The position numbers and the translations under genes are program-made. A DNA stretch of 64,000 nt from Candidatus Parcubacteria bacterium (lineage in GTDB: Bacteria > Patescibacteriota > Patescibacteriia > Patescibacteriales > UBA12075), in the NCBI GenBank assembly GCA_963814275.1, contig CAWFCE010000001.1, positions 387,307 to 451,306 on the forward strand, in the 5' to 3' direction. The notes beneath the pieces were generated by a model. That model saw only the letters and a program-made list of their open reading frames with translations, had not been told where the DNA came from and did no database searches. How positions within the stretch are numbered: position 1 is the stretch's first letter; every line of letters begins with the position of its first letter. Shown here in pieces: positions 7,010 to 7,535 of the stretch.

Positions 7010-7088
7010 ATCCCTTCGACTCGTTTCACTCGCTCAGGGCAGGCGTGAATCGGGGAGCGGGGAGTGGAGATCGGAGAGCGTGAATCGT
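7010..7088 (+). repeat. G/A-rich post-stop word motif (CGTGAATCGGGGAGCGGGGAG family)
   Basis: Starts immediately after the atpG stop. Related word strings occur at 22515-22572 and 43168-43213, with a partial one at 40339-40400. Confidence 0.6.
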
Positions 7089-7104
7089 AAATTATAATTT
7101 AGCT

Positions 7105-7142
7105 AAAAGAAAGCCGGTCGTCCCATGTAAGAGACAACCGGC
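7105..7142 (-). terminator. Intrinsic terminator of the antisense mini-gene
   Basis: On the minus strand GCCGGT...ACCGGC (7137-7142 / 7113-7118, extended by GTC/GAC) is followed by TTTCTTTT. Confidence 0.5.
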
Positions 7143-7151
7143 GAACGTGCG

Positions 7152-7325
7152 CTAGGTACGGATATTAATAAGTTTAATGAGAAAATCCCATCGTTTTTTT
7201 TTGCGAGCCTCTTCAAGCTCGCGCTCCTTAGCCATTCTATCCGCCAAGATATTCGAACAATCCCAGGCGATTTGATCATGACGGATTTGATCCGATAGTG
7301 GCCATCCTGAAGTATAAGTGTTCAT
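7152..7325 (-). CDS. Hypothetical 57-aa protein encoded antisense between atpG and atpD
   Basis: My own translation gives MNTYTSGWPLSDQIRHDQIAWDCSNILADRMAKERELEEARKKKRWDFLIKLINIRT. It is below the ORF-track cutoff. AAGGGGGGGG lies 6 nt upstream of the ATG. It has its own promoter and terminator. Confidence 0.4.
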   Translation of the reverse strand: MNTYTSGWPLSDQIRHDQIAWDCSNILADRMAKERELEEARKKKRWDFLIKLINIRT

Positions 7326-7374
7326 GCTACACCCCCCCCTTGTTTATATGGTACAGTTTCAAATAAGTAAATAT

Positions 7375-7403
7375 ATTGTAATATAATAATTAATATATGT
7401 CAA
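7375..7403 (-). promoter_or_regulatory. Sigma70-like promoter for the antisense mini-gene
   Basis: On the minus strand: TTGACA (7403-7398), 17-nt spacer, TACAAT (7380-7375). Confidence 0.45.
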
Positions 7404-7535
7404 TAGATATAATAATTTTTTTACTTATATTAAATTAAAAATTACTAAATTATAAATTATAATTACTAATAAAATATTAATTAATCCGGTCAATTAGGAA
7501 TTAGGACTTATAATTTAGAAATTATCGGACAATAT

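Follow-up and report, generated by a model that had tools for sequence, protein, structure and literature searches.

A probable small-protein gene encoded antisense at the atpG-atpD junction of a Patescibacteria ATP synthase operon

Few gene arrangements in bacteria are as stable as the atp operon. In cyanobacteria and chloroplasts the atp genes are split at the boundary between gamma and beta, with one cluster (atp1) running to gamma and another (atp2) carrying beta and epsilon. ATP synthase inhibitors of the IF1 type are helical and basic, and type I toxins are small hydrophobic peptides with a transmembrane helix that are repressed by a cognate antisense RNA. AtpTheta, a protein of 48 amino acids, is a small-protein inhibitor of ATP synthase in cyanobacteria (PMC11848123). 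A literature search on antisense genes within the atp operons of Patescibacteria found nothing. Here we describe such a locus in a stretch of 64,000 nucleotides, hereafter the window, from a Candidatus Parcubacteria bacterium (assembly GCA_963814275.1, contig CAWFCE010000001.1, positions 387,307 to 451,306), the plus strand of which carries an atpBEFHAGDC cluster. On the minus strand between atpG and atpD lies a unit made up of a putative promoter, a Shine-Dalgarno-like (SD) tract, an open reading frame (ORF) for 57 amino acids and a predicted terminator. We consider it likely, judging from its sequence, that the unit is a genuine, independently expressed small-protein gene of a tiny, fast-evolving, lineage-specific family, gained at this junction before the window organism and its closest relative separated. 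Orphan small genes lying antisense within operons are of a known kind; the two-member family is new.

The atpG-atpD spacer occupies 7010-7535, 526 bp between the end of atpG at 7009 and the start of atpD at 7536. An earlier account (the sequence-only reading) had reported a spacer of this length and, antisense within it, a promoter, an SD-like tract, an ORF with its translation and a hairpin followed by a T-tract, and each of these was recovered on re-analysis. The putative promoter, TTGACA-17-TACAAT at 7403-7375 on the minus strand, matches the consensus at 11 of 12 positions. In its hexamers (consensus TTGACA/TATAAT), its spacing within 16-18 nt and its placement upstream of a gene it conforms to the sigma70 type, and 49 nt separate the end of its -10 box from the ATG. 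Matches of this quality are more than background noise in the window, where nine sites with a 17-nt spacer score 11/12 or better against 0.36 expected from shuffled sequence, mostly upstream of genes and correctly oriented. The SD-like tract, AAGGGGGGGG, contains a run of eight G residues and lies at 7341-7332 (minus strand), 6 nt upstream of the ATG. When those of the 48 intergenic spacers in the window that measure at least 150 bp were screened with an SD regular expression for ORFs of at least 30 amino acids, this ORF was the only one flagged. It runs from 7325 to 7152 on the minus strand (MNTYTSGWPLSDQIRHDQIAWDCSNILADRMAKERELEEARKKKRWDFLIKLINIRT; G+C 42%, G+C at third codon positions (GC3) 41%), its translation is identical to the one first quoted, and the predicted product includes the peptide MNTYTSGWPLSDQIR. 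The terminator (7142-7103, minus strand) begins 9 nt past the stop codon with a hairpin at 7142-7113, formed by a 12-bp stem with eight GC pairs and a 6-nt loop, followed by TTTCTTTT. A G+C-rich hairpin with a U-tract on the transcribed strand, the hallmark of an intrinsic terminator, is thus present on the minus strand only. At gathering score the Rfam models matched nothing but two tRNAs across the window, and within 6950-7600 there was no match at E up to 1.

If the unit functions as its elements suggest, RNA polymerase with a sigma70-type factor would start about 7 nt past TACAAT, near 7368, and a leader of about 43 nt would hold the G-rich SD tract. Translation would yield a basic, single-helix, cytosolic peptide of 57 amino acids. 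The hairpin and U-tract would end the transcript, about 265 nt long from about 7368 to about 7105, some 95 nt short of atpG, so that the antisense RNA would never enter that gene. Any effect on atpD-atpC would then arise from transcription converging, or RNAs pairing, within about 7105-7368.

Support for a protein-coding gene comes from a relative. An exhaustive HMMER scan of 1.84 billion protein representatives with the 57-residue peptide matched two other proteins, P0122 and P0123. The former (2915 amino acids, E 4e-11) is a translated tandem repeat, its score inflated by six stretches of about 31% identity, and was discarded. P0123 (101 amino acids, E 6e-6, 51-55% identity over 45 residues) is the sole credible homologue among the 1.84 billion representatives. 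A word-indexed search of 5.8 billion proteins gave nothing beyond the 57-residue protein itself. The gene for P0123 lies in the spacer between atpG and atpD, on the strand opposite to both, on two contigs of a sister organism, L063 (522 kb, from the European Nucleotide Archive, ENA) and L064, an independent short-read contig. Since the search took no account of position, the shared location is independent evidence that P0123 is an orthologue; the search among relatives proposed by the sequence-only reading has found a counterpart at the same site and in the same orientation. The L063/L064 organism is the closest relative found: its atpG protein is 92% identical over 219 residues, with 0.77 synonymous (dS) and 0.046 non-synonymous (dN) substitutions per site, and its atp genes are in the same order and 77-86% identical in DNA sequence. 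On L063 (ENA ERZ25039495 contig_32722) atpA, atpD and atpG are each called split. These fragmented calls are consistent with the indel errors of a long-read assembly, and the short-read contig L064 confirms the P0123 ORF.

Over the 45 aligned codons of this single pair dN is 0.42 and dS 1.5, giving a rough dN/dS of 0.27 and a non-synonymous rate about nine times that of atpG. The frame has thus been kept with fewer non-synonymous than synonymous changes, rather than showing the equal rates and lack of conservation that had been named at the outset as speaking against a gene. When the 53 observed substitutions were placed at random in 20,000 simulations, 14.1±2.2 identical residues were retained, compared with 25 of 45 observed, a value reached in none of the runs; only 12% of the simulations were free of stops. 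Each of the other five frames contains stops in one or both genomes, is less conserved, or both. The expression signals have been retained as well. Terminator hairpin, SD context and -35 box are kept with the same spacing in the window and in L064. Directly after the stop codon of the orthologue there is a 13-bp hairpin with a T-tract, and the stem changes between the two genomes are one-sided and preserve pairing. The orthologue has the SD AAAGGGGG, in the context ATAAAACAAAGGGGGTGTACATG compared with ATAAACAAGGGGGGGGTGTAGCATG in the window, and the two share ATAAA(A)CAA(A)GGGGG..TGTA(G)CATG. The L064 promoter, CTGACA-18-TATAAT (11/12), is overlapped by TTGACT-17-TATTAA, and its -10 box ends 51 nt before the ATG, compared with 49 nt in the window. 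The stretch from the atpG stop to the terminator cannot be aligned (z 0.3). Taken together, these comparisons indicate that the unit is very probably real and its ORF protein-coding and fast-evolving. The G8 homopolymer of the window (7332-7339) is G5 in the L064 unit; a tract of this kind could slip, altering SD strength or spacing.

At the N-terminus of P0123 a hydrophobic segment of 20 residues (maximum Kyte-Doolittle value 2.57) and a Lys-rich linker precede a conserved YTSGWPxxDQxRHxxIAxDCSxILAxR core, into which the ATG of the window ORF runs directly. SD and ATG of the two sequences align, and the forms differ by an in-frame indel of 42 codons just after the start codon. The window peptide is hydrophilic, with a grand average of hydropathy of -0.82 and an isoelectric point of 9.0. 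AlphaFold (AF2, from a two-sequence alignment) models it as a single long helix over residues 10-56 with a mean predicted local distance difference test score (pLDDT) of 84.5; the peptide is thus predicted to be a basic single helix. A Foldseek search with this model returned no match, a single helix making a fold search weakly informative. The sequence-only reading had recognised no family, and this holds after wider searches: the peptide has no Pfam match at E up to 1 and P0123 none at E up to 0.1. Pfam, NCBIfam, PADLOC and PHROGs gave nothing beyond noise for the peptide, its orthologue and the ORFs found at this junction in other relatives, and a search of the PDB with the peptide gave no match. 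The 57- and 101-residue proteins form a new, lineage-specific small-protein family with two known members.

The junction was surveyed in about 25 Falkowbacteria-like lineages with atpG identities of 59-83%. Spacer length varies between about 20 bp and about 2 kb, and of the operon junctions this is the one most often expanded. A break at this place in the operon had been called unusual, but the rarity was overstated, as the junction is expanded in about 40% of the sampled lineages. L067, L070, L071, L068, L001, L003 and L037 are among the lineages with a compact junction (about 20-90 bp), and the next-closest relatives after L064, L024 and L038 (atpG 83%), have a spacer of about 165 bp without an ORF. 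In view of these short, ORF-less junctions the unit appears to have been gained in an ancestor that the window organism shares with L063/L064. The original proposal of an insertion thus stands, as a lineage-specific gain. As to the proviso that the window strain might be the only one to carry filler at an otherwise continuous junction, many relatives do have continuous junctions, but the sister genome also carries the unit.

An antisense ORF of 57-153 amino acids following a GGAGG-type SD was found at this junction in nine lineages: the window, L063/L064, L021, L022/L026, L039, L028, L030, L040 and L031. Each has TTGACA on the antisense strand (in L064 the variant is TTGACT, which CTGACA overlaps), a TGn extended -10 is seen in most, and in nine of nine a hairpin is predicted downstream of the ORF, with a T-run on the ORF strand only in most. 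The complementary TGTCAA is in the spacers of none of the 15 lineages that do not have an antisense ORF. All nine orphan units are antisense, and apart from the window/L064 pair no homology was detected among the ORFs of different lineages. Four of these ORFs (P0123, L028, L030 and L040) contain hydrophobic, transmembrane-like segments; the others are soluble. The promoter/SD flanks of L021 and L022 match at 87% (z 18) and their terminator flanks are conserved as well (z 12), compared with background similarity in the ORF body (z 2.4). At the dS of 0.6-1.0 that separates these genomes unconstrained DNA would no longer align, which argues that the flanks are under selection; the ORF body appears either to have been replaced or to have diverged nearly freely while staying open. 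A "cassette swap" between these two genomes, suggested by flanks 82-87% identical, was set aside, since unconstrained sequence at this dS is unalignable in any case. The promoter spacer sequence is alike in L021, L022, L039 and L040, which have unrelated ORFs. Sense-oriented genes also occupy the junction, two of the GIY-YIG family and one of DUF559, in L033, L065 and L031. An apparent minus-strand gene in L069 proved to be an artefact of a tandem repeat at a contig end inside atpD. A short Ala/Lys-rich insertion near the atpD N-terminus (PSAAKAMEDK-like, partly tandemly repeated) was noted in L069 (3527-3674), where it gave rise to the false minus-strand call, and in L021, L032, L039 and L040; the atpD of the window does not have it.

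The window unit is one case of an antisense slot that recurs at this junction in Falkowbacteria-like Patescibacteria, with strong expression signals kept and an ORF that differs by lineage. From this survey one may further put forward, tentatively and as a rather unlikely generalization, that the atpG-atpD junction is a conserved antisense expression slot, in which selection maintains a promoter close to consensus next to atpD, a strong SD and a terminator that acts in one direction, and the small ORF turns over completely, by replacement or by extremely fast divergence. Such a slot would be either a built-in regulator of beta and epsilon expression or of ATP synthase activity, or a place within an essential operon where small genes are continually born and exchanged.

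The sequence-only reading had concluded that the F1 genes are physically split into atpA-G and atpD units. The re-analysis does not support this. On the plus strand the hairpin has AAAAGAAA before it and GAACGTG after it, with no T-tract, and because the T-tract is on the minus strand only, the hairpin should not stop read-through from atpG to atpD. Convergent transcription over about 260 bp could lower that read-through or produce double-stranded RNA, and if read-through were lowered, atpD-atpC would depend on a promoter in 7404-7535. This interval is the only possible place for an atpD-specific promoter. It lies between the antisense promoter and atpD and is a 21%-G+C tract of 7-nt and 15-nt periodic repeats (TAAATTA, AATTACT, AATTAGG). 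Upstream of atpD there is no plus-strand promoter match of at least 11/12; the best candidate, TTAAAA-17-TATAAT at 7435-7463, scores 10/12 in this 21%-G+C DNA. In the sister genome 74 bp separate the divergent start codons of the small ORF and atpD. No SD precedes atpD, and in the window an SD motif is absent from the 20 nt before the start of most core genes, all atp genes included. A strong GGAGG was seen in only a few window genes (10453, 23595, 27140, 32804 and 40686), some of them low in G+C or accessory-looking.

On the other side of the unit a G+C-rich short-period repeat, GCGTGAATCG...GGGGAGCGGGGAGTGGAGATCGGAGAGCGTGAATCG (7010-7088; period 7 in Tandem Repeats Finder), follows the atpG stop directly. 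It matches 43168-43213 at 87%, with weaker copies at 22517-22560 and 40364-40391, and is not conserved in the sister genome (no similarity to the left spacer of L064, z 0.3). The family, GGGGAGCG / GGAGAGCGTGAATCG (7043-7088 and the three other sites), stands directly after the stops of several high-G+C genes and is followed by very AT-rich DNA. Relatives have other, genome-specific repeats at the same spot, for example ATGCGGACTA in L021/L022 and GTAATTTGTAATAA in L064. An exact 11-nt direct repeat, TTATAATTTAG, at 7092-7102 and 7508-7518 brackets the antisense unit and the AT-rich tract, and excising one copy together with the interval would shorten the spacer to about 110 bp, similar to the other atp spacers. 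Its interpretation as a target-site duplication was not adopted, as an 11-mer in DNA of 21-35% G+C is not clearly beyond chance and the antisense promoter of L064 lies outside the equivalent repeat.

Several observations weigh against a functional small-protein gene. The window copy, which does not have the 42-residue N-terminal transmembrane segment of its orthologue, could be a decaying derivative. Its GC3 of 0.41 is unlike that of the core genes. The estimate of selection is rough, with two family members, 45 alignable codons and a dS near saturation. The unrelated ORFs that occupy the junction elsewhere weaken the case that the peptide sequence matters for ATP synthase, and antisense transcription rather than the protein may be what selection keeps. 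Transcription and translation, like any interference with atpD, are inferred from sequence. The alternative of selection for antisense transcription, in which a strong promoter near atpD fires toward atpG and convergent transcription or antisense RNA tunes or uncouples atpD-atpC from atpBEFHAG, the ORF being incidental or RNA-stabilizing, accounts for the consistent orientation of the nine orphan units, for the conserved L021/L022 flanks around a background-level ORF body, for the alike promoter spacers of L021, L022, L039 and L040, and for a terminator that would confine the antisense RNA to the spacer. We regard it as unlikely nevertheless: in the window/L064 pair the amino-acid sequence itself is under selection, a strong SD and a frame open from SD to terminator are kept in every unit, which a pure RNA function would not need, and many close relatives do without any such unit.

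Decay or cargo status is doubtful, if possible. The junction would then be a permissive landing site for foreign or newborn small genes, perhaps toxin-like or selfish, and the window copy a truncated one heading to loss. It is the most variable junction of the operon, it carries GIY-YIG and DUF559 genes in L033, L065 and L031, and there are comparable genes nearby, of the 23S-rRNA-IVP family in the next window spacer and of the PDDEXK_3 family between atpA and atpG of L021. The atypical GC3 of the ORF, the loss of the P0123 membrane anchor from the window copy and the transmembrane-like segments in four of the ORFs at this junction, as in type I toxins, point the same way. But the truncation is exactly in frame with SD and ATG kept, purifying selection acts on the frame, the window peptide is devoid of hydrophobic segments and hence not toxin-like, PADLOC and PHROGs gave no match, and nothing convincing was found in the way of mobile-element boundaries. 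A role for the peptide as a small protein that regulates or assists the F1Fo ATP synthase and is encoded beside its target, by analogy with IF1, the zeta subunit or AtpTheta, is improbable. Its location between the genes for gamma and beta, the same in two genomes, the existence of small-protein inhibitors such as AtpTheta, and the predicted single long basic helix, resembling inhibitors of the IF1 type, are consistent with such a role. Pfam and NCBIfam gave no family related to ATP synthase and the PDB no match, the junction elsewhere holds unrelated peptides, hydrophobic or soluble, and plainly selfish GIY-YIG and DUF559 genes, and most relatives do not have the gene, which makes its position weak evidence. 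In our ranking of functions, a lineage-specific small protein stands before antisense transcription, followed by accessory or decaying cargo and then by an IF1- or AtpTheta-like regulator. An autonomous antisense gene inside so stable an operon, recurring across the clade with different cargo, would be a case of an essential operon in the reduced genomes of Patescibacteria tolerating, and perhaps exploiting, internal insertions. The locus offers a small, defined target for the study of antisense control of ATP synthase subunit balance and of orphan small-protein expression. If the unit were accessory cargo only, the junction would still be a hotspot in which to study small-gene turnover.

Upstream of the spacer, atpG (6026-7009, plus strand) encodes the F1 gamma subunit (Pfam PF00231, ATP-synt, E 7e-91). 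Its true start is probably MPNTKD at 6026 rather than the TTG at 5981, because relatives of 323 amino acids open with the same motif. Downstream, atpD (7536-8915, plus strand) encodes the F1 beta subunit (PF00006/PF02874/PF22919, ATP-synt_ab). Between atpD and atpC there is a gene of the 23S-rRNA-IVP four-helix-bundle family (8971-9396, plus strand; PF05635, E 2.5e-22; G+C 33%), and the atpD-atpC gap measures 545 bp, compared with about 165 bp in the sister contig L063. Since the sister does not have the IVP gene, the operon appears to have taken up a second insertion here, later than the first. The best named atpG matches, at 74-80% identity, are to metagenome-assembled genomes of Falkowbacteria and Patescibacteria, which places the window genome among Patescibacteria close to Candidatus Falkowbacteria. 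The window has 48% G+C, core genes with GC3 of 0.6-0.7 and spacers of 12-51% G+C. Its 48 spacers have a median of 126 bp and 11 exceed 300 bp, and the length of the atpG-atpD spacer is by itself unremarkable in a genome with long AT-rich spacers.

Other features of the window and its relatives may be recorded. Two near-identical genes for 338-residue HTH_38 + rve (IS30-like) transposases, with identical upstream sequence, lie at 53086-54102 and 56701-57717, both on the minus strand. An IS200-like Y1 transposase gene (19175-19627, plus strand; PF01797, E 7e-34; G+C 36%) shares a 694-bp spacer beside a tRNA-Leu gene with a GIY-YIG gene for 79 amino acids (20130-20369, minus strand). Two tandem units of about 177 bp at 23823-24136, in a 924-bp spacer downstream of a tRNA-Glu gene, give identical short ORFs on both strands. 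The PDDEXK_3 gene (PF13366) of L021 lies at 596-997, between atpA and atpG.

Compared with the systems introduced above, the locus shares a part with each. As in the split atp clusters of cyanobacteria and chloroplasts, the break lies between gamma and beta, and beta and epsilon form the downstream unit; unlike in those clusters, the two halves are adjacent and co-oriented, there is no plus-strand terminator, and an antisense gene fills the gap. The mitochondrial IF1, the alphaproteobacterial zeta subunit and AtpTheta resemble the window peptide in size range, in their single basic helix (predicted here) and in their genomic tie to ATP synthase genes. They differ in having no sequence similarity to it and in not being encoded antisense within the operon, and the occupants of the present junction are mutually unrelated. 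Searches of Pfam (which includes the family IATP), NCBIfam, the PDB and Foldseek gave neither membership in these inhibitor families nor a solved homologue. With type I toxin-antitoxin loci and antisense-embedded small ORFs the unit has in common that a short ORF is preceded by a strong SD and that its mRNA would overlap an opposing transcript, here the read-through from atpG. Several ORFs at the junction in relatives are small and hydrophobic, but the window peptide is hydrophilic and has no membrane segment (maximum 19-residue Kyte-Doolittle mean -0.21), in contrast to P0123; no dedicated antitoxin RNA is identifiable at the locus, and no known toxin family was matched. The small intergenic "hitchhiker" genes of Patescibacteria and other bacteria (23S-rRNA-IVP, GIY-YIG, DUF559 and PDDEXK_3) occupy the same or neighbouring atp spacers in this clade and are gained and lost between close relatives. 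Their profiles match neither the 57-residue ORF nor P0123. The GIY-YIG and DUF559 genes of the atpG-atpD spacer are sense-oriented and belong to recognized families, whereas the 57-residue ORF is antisense and has its own putative promoter, SD and terminator.

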